NCBI GenBank assembly: GCA_964373795.1
Contig: CAYJVY010000004.1
Span: forward strand, 79,944-111,943
From: an uncultured archaeon
GTDB lineage: Archaea > Iainarchaeota > Iainarchaeia > Iainarchaeales > DATDZZ01
DNA length: 32,000 nt
Reading direction: 5' to 3'
Shown: one piece after another, positions 5,337 to 32,000 of the stretch
How the letters are laid out: the number at the start of each line of letters is the position of its first letter
How positions within the stretch are numbered: position 1 is the first letter of the stretch
Translations under genes and position numbers: made by a program
Notes under the pieces: generated by a model
Database searches by the model: none
Seen by the model: only the letters and a program-made list of their open reading frames with translations
What the model was told of the DNA's origin: nothing

Positions 5337-6191
5337 TTGTTTTTAGTTGACTCAATTCATCATTATATAAATAACTTTAAAGCTGTTGCAGCTTTCCTAA
5401 TTTTACTTATCTTTGTATTCATTTTCATTCAATTTCCTAATGCTTTTCTTTCAAGCGGAAATGTTTTCCTTGAATATGGCAATAATCAAACGCCTTTAAT
5501 TATATTAGCCGTGGAATTTATTTCACTTTTATTGTTTGTTTTATTTTACAGCATTTTTGTAACAATAATTGTTTTTGGAGTAAGAAAAGAATTAAGCCAT
5601 GTAAGACTATGGTATTACTTGCAGGAAATGATTCACAAGTTTTCCTTCAAAATATTTGTTTTATATTTAGCTTTCTTTTTAATTTCATTAATTCTTTCCC
5701 TTGCATTAATTTCAAGCAATTTAATTCCTTTCACTCAAGCAATCCTTTTATCAAATATGTTAATGTTAGTGCTTTCATTGCTTTTATTGTTTGTTCCGCA
5801 AGCAATTGTAGTTGACGAAGAAAACTTAGTTCACTCAATTAAAAACAATTTTGATTTCATTGTAAAAAATCCTCTTCAAACAATTCTAGTAATCGTTTTA
5901 TCAATTATCTTAGTTGGAGTAATTCCATTCATTGAAATGTTTTTTGATTCATTTCAATTCAGTGGAAGATTTGTATCACTTGTATTAATGCTATTATTTG
6001 TAATTCCATTCATTGAAATAGTTAAAACTCATTTCTATATGCTTAGAATTGAATTAGTTAAATCATCTCATCATGCAAGAAAAATGCATTCAAATTATTC
6101 AAAAGAATTTGAACAAGCTTTAAGAGAAAAAGAAGAAAAAATGAAAGACGTTAAACCAATGATTAAAAACAGAGGAAAAGAAGAAAATTAA
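5337..6191 (+). CDS. integral membrane protein, unknown function
   Basis: TTG start lies 7 nt after GGGAGG. It has about 6-7 hydrophobic spans and a charged C-terminal tail. Confidence 0.6.
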   Translation: MFLVDSIHHYINNFKAVAAFLILLIFVFIFIQFPNAFLSSGNVFLEYGNNQTPLIILAVEFISLLLFVLFYSIFVTIIVFGVRKELSHVRLWYYLQEMIHKFSFKIFVLYLAFFLISLILSLALISSNLIPFTQAILLSNMLMLVLSLLLLFVPQAIVVDEENLVHSIKNNFDFIVKNPLQTILVIVLSIILVGVIPFIEMFFDSFQFSGRFVSLVLMLLFVIPFIEIVKTHFYMLRIELVKSSHHARKMHSNYSKEFEQALREKEEKMKDVKPMIKNRGKEEN

Positions 6192-12589: not shown

Positions 12590-14071
12590 ATGGAAACAAA
12601 GTGGTTATTTGTAGAGGAAATTCCAAATTCACACCCATTTGTTTTGGAGGGCGTGTGGAGATTTATTTCAACAAAATTTGAAAAAGAATACTCTGGAAAA
12701 ATTTCTACTGCTCTGGCTTTTGAGAAAGGAACCTCGTACCTTTACATTAATTCTGCTGATTGGAAAAGAGCAGGGAAAAGCGTATTTGCAAAAGTTGTTT
12801 CGGATCCTAATTGGATGCTGGAGAAAAACAAAACTAATGAAGAAATACAAACAAGGCTGTACACTTTATATTCAGAAATTGGGAAAAAGCCAGTATCAAA
12901 ACTTTCAACTTCTGAGCTTCTTGATTTGTTGCAGAACTGGTTAGACGAATATGAATTAGGAATCTCTATCGGCTGGATTGACATGGCAATGGAATTCCCA
13001 CACGAATTACTGTCAAACTATCTAAAAGATTATTTGAAGAAAAAAATTCATGAACAAAAATTAAGATATCATGAGTCAGAATTATTTACTGTTTTTTCAA
13101 CTCCTGTTAGAGAAACTTGGGCAAAAAGAGAAGAAAAAAGTTTACTAAAGATTTGTTTGGAAATAAAGAATAAATATGATTCAGTTGACTTGAATACTCT
13201 TAAGTCTTTGGAAGAGCATTTTCAAAAATTCAAATGGTTGTCCTACATGTACGTTGGCCCGGCACAGGAAAAATCATATTACATTGACTTAATACATGAA
13301 CTTTTTTCGGAGAATTTGGATTTTGAAGGTAAATTAAAAAGATTGGAAAACGAAGGTAAAGAGTTTGAAAAGAAAAAGCATAAATACTTGAATGAACTGC
13401 AGGCTGATGAAACGCATAAAAAATTGTTGCAAATAGCTGAAAACCTTGTCTGGTTAAAGGATTATAGAAAAAACCAAATTTTGTTCAGTTTTTATTCAGT
13501 TGAAAAATTGTTAAAAGAAATATCAAAGAGATTTGGTTTATCCCTAAACCAGTTAAGGTTTGTCACACCTTTTGAAGCTAAAAAATATTTACAATCAAAC
13601 TTTTCTCCTGAAGAATTGAACACTAGATACAATGCATGTGTTTATTTGTTTGACAAAGGAACAAACAGCTTTTATGTTGGAGAAGAAGCTAAAAAATTCC
13701 ATGAATCAATTAAGCCTAAAGAAACTTTTGACCTTAGTGTAACTGTGTTGCGTGGAAGTACTGCTGTTCCTGGCAAGGTAAAAGGCAGGATAAAATTAGT
13801 TATTCTGCCAAAAGATATGCCTAAGATGAATCAAGGCGATATTTTGGTTGCACATGCAACAAATCCCGACGTAGTTCCTGCAATGAAAAAAGCTGCGGCA
13901 ATAATTGCTGATGTGGGTGGATTGACATGTCATGCTGCAATTGTTTCAAGAGAAATGGGAACTCCATGCATTGTAGGAACAAAATATGCAACAAAACTAC
14001 TCAAAGACAACGACTTAGTAGAAGTGGATGCAACTAACGGAGTTATAAGAATTCTGAAAAAAGCAAAATAG
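12590..14071 (+). CDS. PEP-utilising enzyme mobile (swivel phosphohistidine) domain protein with an unassigned 380-aa N-terminal region
   Basis: The C-terminus is GDILVAHATNPDVVPAMKKAAAIIADVGGLTCHAAIVSREMGTPCIVG. No ATP-grasp or PEP/pyruvate barrel motif was seen. Confidence 0.8.
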   Translation: METKWLFVEEIPNSHPFVLEGVWRFISTKFEKEYSGKISTALAFEKGTSYLYINSADWKRAGKSVFAKVVSDPNWMLEKNKTNEEIQTRLYTLYSEIGKKPVSKLSTSELLDLLQNWLDEYELGISIGWIDMAMEFPHELLSNYLKDYLKKKIHEQKLRYHESELFTVFSTPVRETWAKREEKSLLKICLEIKNKYDSVDLNTLKSLEEHFQKFKWLSYMYVGPAQEKSYYIDLIHELFSENLDFEGKLKRLENEGKEFEKKKHKYLNELQADETHKKLLQIAENLVWLKDYRKNQILFSFYSVEKLLKEISKRFGLSLNQLRFVTPFEAKKYLQSNFSPEELNTRYNACVYLFDKGTNSFYVGEEAKKFHESIKPKETFDLSVTVLRGSTAVPGKVKGRIKLVILPKDMPKMNQGDILVAHATNPDVVPAMKKAAAIIADVGGLTCHAAIVSREMGTPCIVGTKYATKLLKDNDLVEVDATNGVIRILKKAK

Positions 14072-27459: not shown

Positions 27460-27630
27460 TTGGATGAAAAAGCCCAAGTATCAATTGAATTAATTGTTGT
27501 ACTAGCAGCAGTTGTTGCAATTGTTTTACTTTTAGTAGGACAATTACAGGAAACAAGCAAGGAAGGAGTGAAAGAATTTGATGAAACAACTAGTGAAGTT
27601 TTTAAGGAAATCAAAAAAATCAATTCATAG
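27460..27630 (+). CDS. class III signal peptide (archaeal type IV pilin-like) small protein
   Basis: TTG lies 6-7 nt after AGGAGG. The sequence DEKAQVSIELIVVLAAVVAIVLLLVG has a charged leader, Q, then a hydrophobic helix. The tracked ORF's GC-rich 34-codon extension was rejected. Confidence 0.65.
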   Translation: MDEKAQVSIELIVVLAAVVAIVLLLVGQLQETSKEGVKEFDETTSEVFKEIKKINS

Positions 27631-28042
27631 AGGACAAATAAGTTTAGAATACTTATTGATTTTGGTTTCCTTTTTTTCTTTTTTTATTTTATTCTTTCCA
27701 TTAATGTTAAAAATATTTGAAGAAGGAAATCAAGCAATTGAGTTGCAAAACGCAAAAATGTTCTTAAAAGAATTGAAAAACAAGATAACAGAAGTCTCGC
27801 TATATGAAAATAATTCAAAACAAGTAATTGAAGTAAATTCAAATAATGAATGGCTAGTCAAAATTGAAAACAAAAGCATTTCACTTGAAATTCAGAAAAA
27901 AATAAATAATAAAATTGAAAAAATAACTTTAAAAGAAGAAATAAGTCAAAACTTGAACAAAATAGAATTAATTCTAAAAGACAAAAGTATGCTTGAAATA
28001 AAAAATTCTAAAGAAAAAATTGAAGTTAAAAAAATTAATTAA
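27578..28042 (+). CDS. class III signal peptide pilin-like protein
   Basis: KKSIHRGQISLEYLLILVSFFSFFILFF is the R-G-Q / SLEYLL prepilin-type motif. It overlaps the previous gene by 53 nt. Confidence 0.7.
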   Translation: MMKQLVKFLRKSKKSIHRGQISLEYLLILVSFFSFFILFFPLMLKIFEEGNQAIELQNAKMFLKELKNKITEVSLYENNSKQVIEVNSNNEWLVKIENKSISLEIQKKINNKIEKITLKEEISQNLNKIELILKDKSMLEIKNSKEKIEVKKIN

Positions 28043-28400
28043 AGAAAACAGTTAACTCAATTACATAAAACTGCCCTTCAGAAAAAATATTTGCAGTAGA
28101 AGTAATTGAATTTTTTTCATCATTAAAAGCGTTCCACAAAATCGAATTATTTAACACAATTTTCCCATTATTTTGTGGGAAAACAAATTTAAAATCTTCA
28201 ATTAATTCATTTGCATTAAATGTTTTAGAATAACTCCAAACCTTTAACAAGTCATGTTGTTTTTGCAATAAATAAATTGAGTTAAAAGAAACGTTTATTG
28301 GAGTTGAAATTAATAAAAGAAAATTAATTAAAATAGTTAAAGAAAGCAAGGCTTCAAAAGAATAAATAAAGGCTTTTTTATTCACAAAAAACCACTCCAA
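28035..28400 (-). CDS. pilin-like protein (N-terminal hydrophobic helix)
   Basis: NKKAFIYSFEALLSLTILINFLLLI resembles a class III signal peptide. It is last in a four-gene minus-strand run. Confidence 0.5.
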   Translation of the reverse strand: MEWFFVNKKAFIYSFEALLSLTILINFLLLISTPINVSFNSIYLLQKQHDLLKVWSYSKTFNANELIEDFKFVFPQNNGKIVLNNSILWNAFNDEKNSITSTANIFSEGQFYVIELTVFFN

Positions 28401-28806
28401 GTAAAGCCTTTTTTAAAATCTCTTCTTTAACTAAAACAAATCTTTGAATTGAAAAACATTTTTCAGTTAAAGGAAGTTGTCGAATGAAATGTGTTTCCCC
28501 ATTCTTAAATTTAATAAAAACCTCTTTAACGTTTTCAGGAAACTGCTTGTCATCAATTAAGTGAAAATCAATTATATTTGAAAGAACTCTATGTTTTTTG
28601 TCATCAAAAACTGAAAGGCCTTGTGAATTAGACTTAATTGATTTTTTCACTAAACCGTCTGCAAAGGTTAAAGCTTTTCTCTCTAAAGAAACGCTTTCAA
28701 CAAGTTGTTTTTTGTTCTCAATTGAATTACTTAGAAATAAAAAAAATAAGTAAAAAATTAAAAGAATTAAAATGAATGAAAAAACCAAGTCAGTGAAAAA
28801 AATCAT
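28378..28806 (-). CDS. pilin-like or membrane-anchored hypothetical protein
   Basis: The N-terminus is MIFFTDLVFSFILILLIFYLFFLFL. It overlaps the next gene by 23 nt. Confidence 0.45.
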   Translation of the reverse strand: MIFFTDLVFSFILILLIFYLFFLFLSNSIENKKQLVESVSLERKALTFADGLVKKSIKSNSQGLSVFDDKKHRVLSNIIDFHLIDDKQFPENVKEVFIKFKNGETHFIRQLPLTEKCFSIQRFVLVKEEILKKALLGVVFCE

Positions 28807-28810
28807 TCCT

Positions 28811-29125
28811 TTAATTGTAATGGTTGTTCACCTTTATTTCATTATTTTTAAATCCAATTATTTCTTTATTGATTAACTGTAAAGAAATGTTTTCATCAAA
28901 AAAACCTTCACTGTTATAACAATTAAACTCTGAAGTAATTTTCCCAGAAAAAACATTGTTATAAAAATAGTCAACTACAAATGCACATTGCTCTAAAAAA
29001 ATGTTTTCCTTAAAAGTGTTTAAAGAGTTATTAAAATCATTTAATGCATTTGATTCAAATCTAATAAAAGCACTCAAAAGCAAAAAAGAAACAATTAAAG
29101 AAATAATAAATTCAAGAAAATTCAT
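28811..29125 (-). CDS. pilin-like hypothetical protein
   Basis: The N-terminus MNFLEFIISLIVSFLLLSAFI has an acidic residue early in the hydrophobic helix. Confidence 0.45.
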   Translation of the reverse strand: MNFLEFIISLIVSFLLLSAFIRFESNALNDFNNSLNTFKENIFLEQCAFVVDYFYNNVFSGKITSEFNCYNSEGFFDENISLQLINKEIIGFKNNEIKVNNHYN

Positions 29126-29136
29126 TTTTTTTCCTC

Positions 29137-29673
29137 TTAATTTTTAACCTCTAAAGAATAATTTAATGGAATTAAAAAAATTTGATTTGAATTTGGAAAA
29201 TTTATTTTTGCGAATAAAATCTTTTTTTCATTAAAAGGAAAAGTCAATTCATTTTTTTTATTAAAGGAATCGGGTTTTACTTTAAACAAGGATTTTAAAG
29301 AATTAATGGAGGGTTTTTCACTCTGAGCATTGAATAGATTTGAATAATTAATTGAATTCTGCGAAGCCAAAAGAAAAGTTGTTTGTTTATTTTTTTGTTC
29401 AATTAAATTAAGAAAATTAAATAACTCATTAGATAAATCTTTTTTTATTTCACCTGAATTAAAGTTCCCGATCTTTAATTTTTTAAGTAAAAAAAATTCA
29501 AAAAAAGAATCAAGATTTTGCTCTAACTCTGTTCTCAAGTAATTGGCTTTCTCTATTTCAATAATAATGTTCTTGGATTCATTTAATTTGTTAAAAGTTA
29601 AATTCATGTCTTGTAAAGAGATCAGAAAAGGAAGCAAGAACAAAACCAAAAGAAAAGAAAAAAACCCTTTCAT
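29137..29673 (-). CDS. pilin-like hypothetical protein
   Basis: The N-terminus MKGFFSFLLVLFLLPFLISL has K-G followed by a hydrophobic helix. It is first in the minus-strand run. Confidence 0.5.
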   Translation of the reverse strand: MKGFFSFLLVLFLLPFLISLQDMNLTFNKLNESKNIIIEIEKANYLRTELEQNLDSFFEFFLLKKLKIGNFNSGEIKKDLSNELFNFLNLIEQKNKQTTFLLASQNSINYSNLFNAQSEKPSINSLKSLFKVKPDSFNKKNELTFPFNEKKILFAKINFPNSNQIFLIPLNYSLEVKN

Positions 29674-31242: not shown

Positions 31243-32000
31243 ATGAACAAGTTTTTGTTTGCAGTATTTTTGCTTGTCACAATATTTTTTTTAGGCTGTT
31301 TAGTTAAAGAAAATCCTCCAACAGCAGTCAATAAATCCGAAATTGAAATAATTAAAAATTTTGTAGACAAGTCTCTTGAAATTGAAAATAATTCAAGCCA
31401 AGAAGAAAAACTTAATCTTTGCGGAAATAAAATTGTGGATGTAAATGAAAACTGTTCTAATTGCATTCAAGATGTTTTATGCAGTGAAAACCAAGAATGT
31501 GTAAATGGAATATGTAAACTAAAAGGATTGTGTGGATTTCAAGTCTGTAAAGAAGATGAAAAATGTATTGAAGAAGAGTTTTGCATGAACAAAAGTCTTT
31601 GCAAGGATGGCACTCCCATAAATTCTTGTTCAAATTTTAAACAAAAATACTGTAATGAAAACAATGAATTAATTAATGATTGCAAAAAATGCGGGTGTGG
31701 AAATTTAAGTGAATGTCAAGAAGATGGCAGTTGCAAGAAAAAAGTATTTGAACAATCAAAATATGAGTGCATAACTTGTAATGGGTTTTGTTTTTCTAAA
31801 AATTTAGGAAACGAATTATGCATTGACAATCATTTTTACAATAATTATTCCTATACTAGATCAAATAATTGTAGCACTAATTCAGACTGTGGCCCAGGAT
31901 TTCAATGCATTAACAATGTTTGCACTCAATATTACTGGGAAAATCCTTACAATGTTCCAATAAAAATTATTCCAAAATATTCTGAATCAATTCCTTTAAA
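31243..32000 (+). CDS. cysteine-rich secreted lipoprotein, 3' end beyond window
   Basis: This ORF is not in the track because it has no stop in the window. I translated it by hand from ATG 31243 and the frame stays open to nt 32000. The signal peptide plus lipobox is MNKFLFAVFLLVTIFFLGC. Repeated C-x(5-6)-C-x(2-3)-G-x-C modules follow, such as CSENQECVNGIC and CSTNSDCGPGFQCINNVC. Confidence 0.7.
   Translation, partial: MNKFLFAVFLLVTIFFLGCLVKENPPTAVNKSEIEIIKNFVDKSLEIENNSSQEEKLNLCGNKIVDVNENCSNCIQDVLCSENQECVNGICKLKGLCGFQVCKEDEKCIEEEFCMNKSLCKDGTPINSCSNFKQKYCNENNELINDCKKCGCGNLSECQEDGSCKKKVFEQSKYECITCNGFCFSKNLGNELCIDNHFYNNYSYTRSNNCSTNSDCGPGFQCINNVCTQYYWENPYNVPIKIIPKYSESIPL

Follow-up and report, generated by a model that had tools for sequence, protein, structure and literature searches.

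A conserved six-gene block of pilin-like proteins in an Iainarchaeales genome and related DPANN archaea: probable subunits of a type IV filament

Organization of the locus

In the genome of an uncultured archaeon of the Iainarchaeales (phylum Iainarchaeota in the GTDB taxonomy; GenBank assembly GCA_964373795.1), six small open reading frames (ORFs) that encode pilin-like proteins are tightly packed at positions 27460−29673 of the stretch of DNA analyzed here, i.e., the 32,000 nucleotides (nt) of contig CAYJVY010000004.1 between positions 79,944 and 111,943, forward strand (referred to below as the window; coordinates are those of the window unless a related locus is named). Here, we describe these genes and their counterparts in other archaea, and discuss the evidence that their products build a type IV filament as its structural subunits. 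With a G+C content of ~30%, the window is AT-rich; it is archaeal and encodes RFC, CDC48 and topoisomerase I as well as regulators of the Lrp/AsnC, TrmB and HTH_10 types.

The six ORFs form two convergent arms, where genes A, B, C and D, in this order on the minus strand, are read toward P1 and P2 on the plus strand. P1 (27460−27630) encodes a short class III signal-peptide pilin of 56 residues, ~51 of which belong to the mature protein; a globular domain is lacking, and this protein is the candidate major (fiber) subunit. P2 (27581−28042) encodes a class III signal-peptide protein of 153 residues with a globular domain, i.e., a candidate minor pilin. The first gene of the minus-strand operon, A (29137−29673), encodes the largest of the pilin-like proteins (178 residues), and is followed by the pilin-like genes B (28811−29125; 104 residues, no leader in the window), C (28378−28806, or to 28821 with an ATT start; 142 residues from the ATG at 28806 and 147 residues from the ATT at 28821) and D (28035−28385; 116 residues, GTG start). 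Genes A and B are separated by 11 nt, B and C by 4 nt (or they overlap by 11 nt with the ATT start of C), C and D overlap by 8 nt, and P1 and P2 overlap by 50 nt if the ATG start of P2 is used. The two arms meet tail-to-tail in a stop region shared by P2 and D on opposite strands, 8 nt in length (TTAATTAA, 28035−28042), and convergent 3' overlaps of 18−24 nt are also found in six related loci (L004, L005, L010, L013, L015 and L017).

Reading frames of 104−178 codons at a G+C content of 24% are far beyond chance; with an estimated stop probability of ~0.09 per codon in such DNA, the chance of 104 open codons is ~6e-5. Homologues elsewhere exist for all six ORFs. An earlier inspection of the DNA, limited to its letters and a list of ORFs (referred to here as the sequence-only reading), had placed six overlapping or closely spaced genes at this site, with the two arms sharing the stop region, and the ORF coordinates confirm both claims. 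It had also assigned a hydrophobic N-terminal helix to each minus-strand protein, and each of the six proteins has one strongly hydrophobic segment, located at the N-terminus, where the maximum of the Kyte-Doolittle profile (19-residue window) is 2.2−3.1. The globular parts, which were said to show no mutual similarity, gave only weak low-complexity matches in BLASTP, and hhalign comparisons of the family profiles revealed similarity of the N-termini only; on these grounds the idea that the six families are paralogues of each other was rejected beyond the N-terminal helix.

Pilin-type N-termini

In the proteins discussed below, the predicted cleavage site of the prepilin peptidase is marked by a slash, and signed positions are counted from this site. 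A leader that ends in a basic residue at −2 and Gly or Ala at −1 is found in the window in P1 (KA/Q), P2 (RG/Q), A (KG/F) and D (KA/F). In C it is found only with the ATT start (KG/M), and B has none in the window, though most B homologues have MK(K)G/. Among the relatives, such a short basic leader with the hydrophobic helix directly after it is seen in all six families. In the related loci described below, of which there are about 20, the pair [KR][GA] straight before the hydrophobic helix is kept in five of the six families, and in a table of N-termini across these loci it is found at −2/−1 in nearly every locus for P1, P2, A and D; the C family has K-G/ and an acidic residue at +5 or +6. 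A Glu residue is found at +5 in P1, P2 and B, an Asp or Glu at +5 or +6 in C and D, and a Pro at about +22 in P2. The positions of the Glu and Pro residues echo those of bacterial type IV pilins.

The sequence-only reading had attributed class III signal motifs to the two plus-strand ORFs, which holds for both (KA/Q and RG/Q), and relatives of these proteins match the class III signal-peptide family PF04021. It had further described a polar leader followed by a hydrophobic helix in all four minus-strand ORFs, which stands for A and D but not for B, which starts with M-N-F-L-E and has stop codons just upstream, nor for C as listed, whose ATG lies within the helix, where the family has its +1 residue. 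Of the six N-termini, only those of P1 and P2 fit a FlaFind-type core pattern.

The P1 and P2 families

The P1 protein starts with MDEKA/QVSIELIVV, where the mature part begins with QVSIELIVVLAAVVA; its TTG start codon is preceded by GGAGG, 7 nt upstream. It is the best conserved of the six families (42−49% identity to relatives), and the motif [KR][AG]/Q-x-S-x-E is present in P1 of all 19 tabulated loci, with the consensus [KR][AG]/Q-[VI]-S-x-E. P1 consists of no more than a hydrophobic helix and a short amphipathic tail, and is probably the major fiber subunit, similar to Flp of bacterial Tad pili and EpdE of Methanococcus Epd pili.

The P2 protein (..HRG/QISLEYLLIL) has Glu at +5 and Pro at +22, followed by the globular domain, and its consensus across loci is [KRH][AG]/Q-x-S-[LI]-[ED]. 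Four residues, Q19, S21, P40 and W91, are invariant in the family (alignment A7). An identical P2 gene call is present in a public collection, and a word-indexed search with P2 returned only P2 itself and a fragment that is 88% identical. The globular part is under purifying selection, with a ratio of nonsynonymous to synonymous substitution rates (dN/dS) of 0.18 relative to a 91%-identical environmental copy in L003. With PF04021, the window proteins score 17.0 bits (P1, E 0.0057) and 18.4 bits (P2, E 0.0021); among 40 members of the P1 and P2 families, 11 match this model, the best with E 2.4e-7.

Two side observations concern the start of P2. Counted from the ATG, the leader in the window is 18 residues, which is unusually long; relatives have leaders of 3−7 residues and 4-nt overlaps with P1. 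The true start of P2 is uncertain because an ATH codon at −4 (M-H-R-G/Q) would restore this usual layout. The L003 sequence, from a related strain (positions 1−640; ENA ERZ27254754 k141_2946102), matches window positions 27696−28044 and contains a P2 copy from residue 42 only (MLKIFEEGN..), i.e., lacking the leader and the hydrophobic helix, and the 291 nt upstream of it are unrelated AT-rich DNA. This copy may be truncated, or reflect a rearrangement or an assembly chimera.

The minus-strand families

The A protein starts with MKG/FFSFLLVLF and has no acidic residue near the N-terminus. Its motif, [KR][GA]/[LF]x[ST]F, is found in 14 of the 15 tabulated loci in which the anchor pattern matched, the exception being L010 with MNHG/AFFS (family alignment A4). 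A word-indexed search with A found no close homologue besides A itself, and AlphaFold2 prediction from the single sequence yielded only a long N-terminal helix (residues 2−67) at low confidence, i.e., a predicted local distance difference test (pLDDT) value of 46. Protein D (MNKKA/FIYSFEALLSL; its GTG start agrees with the public gene call) carries the conserved motif LQKxHDLxKVW and a Pro at +21 to +24, and its family alignment A6 has 14 invariant columns. The N-terminal motif [KRN][GA]/xxx[STF][LF][ED] is found in 19 of 22 tabulated loci, i.e., in those where the anchor pattern matched; the other three share one sequence, ..NNKG/YVFAFE. None of the A−D proteins matches a Pfam or NCBIfam family. 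Potential N-glycosylation sequons (N-x-S/T) were counted in A, B, D and P2 of the window, each of which has 2−4.

Protein B begins in the window at what would be the mature +1 residue (M-N-F-L-E5), and the leader is absent. The ATG is preceded by GAGG, 7 nt upstream, and an in-frame stop is found 6 codons upstream. The B proteins of L010 and L011 are likewise leaderless, with stop codons directly before the start, and most other relatives start with MK(K)G/I-I-S-[FL]-E-A. Residues E5, C47, C69, H102 and Y103 are invariant in the family (alignment A5).

For ORF C, an exhaustive HMMER search (E ≤ 1e-3) returned 112 cluster representatives of full length, 140−160 residues long and up to 39% identical. 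In the family alignment (A1), the N-terminus reads M-x-x-I-T-x-K-G/, then x-x-F-S-x-D-L and a hydrophobic helix, which, judged from these residues, is a class III signal peptide. Relative to this pattern, ORF C as listed seemingly lacks ~8 N-terminal residues. The in-frame codons upstream, TGA-ACA-ACC-ATT-ACA-ATT-AAA-GGA, correspond to stop, T, T, I, T, I, K and G, and GGTGA is found 6 nt before the first ATT, at 28821. Because these codons reproduce the family leader x-I-T-x-K-G and because GGTGA precedes the ATT, translation of C likely starts at the ATT at 28821, yielding M-T-I-K-G/M-I-F-F-T-D-L. A canonical start before the cleavage site is also missing in C of L016 and in B of L014 and L019.

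A model of C, obtained with AlphaFold2 and a 40-sequence alignment, has a pLDDT of 95.2 and a predicted template-modeling score (pTM) of 0.78. It comprises a helix of 53 residues (2−54) followed by a sheet of six strands. Cys117, Arg122 and Cys141 are invariant in the family, and in the model one of the two cysteines opens strand 5 and the other closes strand 6; with these positions, a disulfide bond between them is plausible.

A fixed block in related genomes

Related loci were collected from the contigs of C homologues and from GTDB genomes and JGI metagenomes that were scanned with the D-family alignment A6. This collection amounts to ~20 independent loci, in metagenome-assembled genomes that bear the labels Candidatus Micrarchaeota, Candidatus Diapherotrites and Candidatus Iainarchaeum, or no more than "archaeon". 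The whole module, with its gene order unchanged, is present in L004−L011, in 8 loci of GTDB genomes and in 11 metagenome loci, and when profile hidden Markov models of the six families were used, A-B-C-D converged on P2-P1 in every locus long enough for the block. The flanks are also recurrent. An M50-family peptidase gene adjoins P1 in every related locus that reaches that far, and beyond the module CDC48, NFACT and topoisomerase I are usually found on one side, and an HTH_5-type regulator, Cdc6 and PheRS on the other. The CDC48 of the window is 66−78% identical to those of the relatives, whereas the pilin-like proteins are only 16−49% identical; such low identity is as expected of fast-evolving surface proteins.

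In one sub-lineage a gene for a GT1-family glycosyltransferase is inserted between D and P2 (L006 10786−11883, L008 10773−11894, L011 5104−6189 and L014 8345−9427, the last identified from position and size alone), which hints at glycosylated subunits. In seven relatives, a further gene beside the module, with Cdc6 and the HTH_5 regulator as its neighbors, encodes a membrane protein of ~440 residues with about six predicted helices (L004 1754−3139, L005 6848−8224, L006 4856−6169, L008 6142−7449, L011 1468−2781, L013 4626−5942 and L014 3298−4638). These proteins are 29−81% identical among themselves, have no Pfam match and no counterpart in the window; a role as platform protein is not supported, given the lack of a Pfam match.

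A putative shared operator

A palindromic, operator-like site (TTCGACATGAAACGAA, 29717−29732) precedes the start codon of A by 44 nt, with a TATA-like T/A run shortly after it, and a second copy (TTCGTTAGAAGACGAA, 27297−27312) lies upstream of the P1-P2 arm. The pattern TTCG-N8-CGAA occurs exactly three times in the 32 kb, where 0.11 occurrences are expected, and none of 100 shuffled sequences reached three. Palindromes of the TTCGTCAATTAACG type are found in relatives 35−50 nt upstream of P1, again just upstream of a TATA-like run, and the same palindrome is located upstream of A in most related loci. With the palindrome at both promoters, the two arms look like one regulon, and joint control of both operons by a single DNA-binding regulator, which would act at the putative TTCG-N8-CGAA operator, is probable.

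One candidate for this regulator is the adjacent tandem Lrp/AsnC-type protein (29827−30873, plus strand), whose gene is divergent from A and shares with it the operator-bearing intergenic region; the models HTH_24, HTH_AsnC-type and AsnC_trans_reg each match two stretches of this protein. A scan of genome contigs with this neighboring 348-aa regulator gave no match. In relatives the equivalent position is held by an HTH_5/HVO_A0261_N regulator, and this HTH_5 protein beside A is the other candidate; in the present genome a regulator of that type lies two genes beyond (L001). A further palindrome, the third in the window (25763−25778), is located 73 nt upstream of a gene for a DUF4013 membrane protein (25851−26459), which suggests that this gene is part of the regulon of the two arms; in the related loci, DUF4013 homologues were not found.

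Interpretation

From the above observations, we conclude, with a probability of roughly 75%, that the locus encodes structural subunits of a type IV filament, i.e., archaeal class III signal-peptide proteins. The set of major and minor type IV-like pilins that the sequence-only reading had proposed is supported by the conserved families, the [KR][GA] leaders in ~20 loci, the PF04021 matches in relatives and the model of C. In the mechanism we envisage, the precursors would insert into the membrane via the N-terminal helix and be cut by a predicted prepilin peptidase after [KR][GA], and an ATPase and a platform protein encoded elsewhere in the genome would polymerize the subunits. P2, A, B, C and D would then be probable minor pilins that prime, cap or decorate the fiber, where A, which has no N-terminal acidic residue, could, in analogy to the bacterial GspK and PilX, sit at the very tip. 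The likely use would be adhesion to surfaces or host cells; the cell-cell attachment suggested in the sequence-only reading is speculative.

Several observations weigh against this interpretation. Pfam scans of all ORFs of at least 90 residues found no T2SSE, T2SSF or A24 peptidase in the 32-kb window, in agreement with the earlier claim that a pilus ATPase, platform and prepilin peptidase are missing there. Neither was a T2SSE, T2SSF or A24 gene found within ~10 kb of the module in the Pfam-annotated related loci, nor an ORF with a T2SSE-type P-loop in any related locus that was scanned. P1 and P2 of the window score below the PF04021 gathering cutoff of 23.7 bits. Because B has no leader, and C has none unless the ATT start is used, at least one subunit would not be a canonical substrate of the peptidase. 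The model of C, when compared to the PDB with Foldseek, resembled no solved pilin or other structure (best E 0.88), and when five family alignments were used as profiles to search PDB sequences, no meaningful match emerged; thus, the architecture of C fits a pilin, yet membership at the level of the fold is not established. Finally, no filament has been observed.

A cultured relative, Micrarchaeota strain Mia14, is reported to harbor two systems for type IV pili and a single FlaK-like peptidase (PMC5498576), which makes it plausible, by analogy, that the machinery is encoded elsewhere in the present genome, and this placement would fit the observation that most archaea keep pilin genes outside pilus operons (PMC4858521). 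A Logan contig that extends 6.8 kb beyond the right end of the window added no pilus machinery gene. A multi-pass membrane ORF at 5337−6191 was considered as a divergent prepilin peptidase and rejected, since it has no A24 match and no GxGD motif.

The subunits might also build a short pseudopilus stub that spans the periplasm or cell wall and serves uptake or secretion, e.g., uptake of DNA as with the ComG pseudopilus of monoderms, or substrate capture as with the Sulfolobus bindosome. One small major subunit with four or five minor ones mirrors ComGC with ComGD-GG, weak N-terminal matches to a ComGE model are seen in 4 of 40 P1-family members (best E 7.6e-6), and the module resides in a stable housekeeping neighborhood of reduced genomes that rely on imported building blocks; class III signal-peptide proteins with roles other than in pili are also known (bioRxiv 10.64898/2026.04.22.720090). 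However, the ComGE matches span only the generic N-terminal helix, far below the 49-bit cutoff of the model, and neither a ComEA/ComEC-like gene nor an ABC transporter or a substrate-binding domain is found in the module or its flanks. The sequence has no feature that separates a stub from a fiber, and we consider the stub unlikely.

It is less probable still, and in our view quite improbable, that the proteins are ordinary small surface proteins, signal-anchored or secreted by the Sec system, that do not polymerize. The N-terminus of A (MKGFFSFLLVLFLLPFLISLQD) could pass as a Sec signal peptide, a basic leader is missing from B and C in their listed forms, the FlaFind-type pattern fits P1 and P2 only, and a structural match to a solved pilin is lacking, all of which such proteins would account for. 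They would not account for the conserved [KR][GA], Glu at +5 and Pro at about +22, which are not features of Sec signals or plain anchors, or for the modeled 53-residue helix of C, predicted to extend far past a membrane span; six genes kept as a fixed, co-regulated block also argue for joint assembly. A relation to the archaellum, where the proteins would be stator or accessory components of the ArlF/ArlG type, was suggested by a weak match of the window P2 to the NCBIfam ArlF model (E 0.0027, 17.9 bits compared to a cutoff of 110). This match was seen in only one of 40 family members, so that an identity of P2 as ArlF was rejected; there is no archaellin or other arl gene nearby, and DPANN archaea are generally reported to lack archaella (PMC5498576). 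This least probable explanation is effectively refuted.

The type IV filament interpretation can be extended to a joint proposal, which we hold as a whole to be unlikely. Here, the module would serve Micrarchaeota/Iainarchaeota-like DPANN archaea across the lineage as a self-contained filament kit, and some of its subunits would have escaped processing by the prepilin peptidase, i.e., B would be translated from the mature +1 residue in at least three lineages, and C here, as well as B or C elsewhere, from ATH codons. A pilin "born mature" in this manner could initiate assembly, and a membrane-anchored ArsR-type regulator would act via TTCG-N8-CGAA. A part for the adjacent M50 intramembrane protease in the processing could be added, which is more speculative.

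Relation to known filament systems

The closest parallels are found in the Epd pili of Methanococcus maripaludis (system 1, ATPase clade 1). Archaeal Epd-type major pilins are small (~70 residues), encoded by stand-alone genes and accompanied by at least five minor pilins (PMC4858521); system 1 occurs in DPANN and its major pilin has no globular domain (bioRxiv 10.64898/2026.04.22.720090). Like P1, the Epd major pilin is small, has Q-x-S-x-E, lacks a globular domain, and has its gene away from the machinery locus; as proposed here, about five further class III signal-peptide proteins serve as minor pilins, and systems of this type have been reported in DPANN and Micrarchaeota (PMC4858521; PMC5498576; bioRxiv 10.64898/2026.04.22.720090). 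In contrast to the present locus, the Methanococcus Epd minor pilins are encoded in an 11-gene cluster that also includes the genes for the ATPase and the EppA peptidase as well as two TadC-like platform genes. The six pilin genes here make up a block by themselves, with no machinery within ~10 kb and no DUF2341 or adhesin gene, and the likeness to Epd in sequence seen here is the shared PF04021-type N-terminus.

P1 is also similar to the Flp pilins of bacterial Tad systems in design, with a short leader before a hydrophobic helix that contains Glu5, a short tail after it, and larger pseudopilins encoded alongside. Unlike Tad, the present genome is archaeal, there are five accessory subunits rather than two, and no TadV, CpaF or TadBC is found nearby; none of the sequences matched the Flp or TadE families. 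The A-B-C-D arm resembles GspH-I-J-K, FimU-PilVWX and ComGD-GG, i.e., four consecutive, overlapping small genes for unrelated pilin-like proteins, often apart from the ATPase, where one member, such as GspK or PilX and here A, lacks the N-terminal acidic residue. The likeness to these bacterial minor-pilin operons is in organization only; sequence or structural similarity is absent, and the role of a tip complex would be an analogy. Stand-alone archaeal pilin genes (Makarova, Koonin and Albers 2016) are likewise found outside pilus operons, but are typically singletons or one-family tandems, whereas the present genes form a fixed block of six families that share an operator and are kept across phylum-level lineages. 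Systems of this kind are already well known; what is new is the four unannotated pilin-like families, the fixed six-gene block across DPANN with its shared operator, and subunits that are leaderless or have a non-canonical start.

DPANN archaea are tiny and mostly host-dependent, and how they attach to their hosts is an open question. If the interpretation as filament subunits holds, six "hypothetical proteins" become a defined pilin module that can be recognized in other genomes and that provides concrete targets for labeling in electron cryo-tomography, for proteomics and for co-culture; with the family profile models, archaeal type IV filament systems could be annotated better. If B is truly leaderless, it would be unusual among pilins in needing no peptidase.

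Other features of the window

The M50-family membrane metallopeptidase gene of the window (26666−27271, minus strand; PF02163, E 2.3e-14) is divergent from P1 and an invariant neighbor of the module. At the right end of the window, a protein of 618 residues with a lipoprotein-type N-terminus (MNKFLFAVFLLVTIFFLGC) and no Pfam match is encoded at 31243−32000, continuing in L001 5690−7546; beyond it lies a gene for an HTH_5 regulator and, further on, one for a DUF87/HerA-like ATPase. Two paralogues of ~490 residues are encoded at 12590−14071 and 15426−16877. Their sole Pfam match is a C-terminal PEP-utilizing mobile domain, and the N-terminal 400 residues are unannotated.

Two G+C-rich islands are found in the window, the only such islands in the 32 kb. 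One of these (27350−27445, given on the plus strand; ~100 nt, 50−56% G+C) is located between the operator/TATA region and the ribosome-binding site of P1, and probably represents a long 5' leader peculiar to this genome, since ten related loci lack it in the corresponding intergenic region. It shows no notable structure (z +0.7), no Rfam match, no convincing tRNA and no similarity to the other island. The latter (26520−26680; 50−54% G+C compared to 20−30% around it) is flanked by the DUF4013 gene on one side and the 3' end of the M50 gene on the other. It gave no tRNA call at default settings and no Rfam match; with relaxed settings, ARAGORN reported a dubious tRNA-like element with a 4-base anticodon at ~26600−26677 on the minus strand, and the folding z-scores of the island are −1.5 to −2.0. 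This island may be an unrecognized RNA gene.

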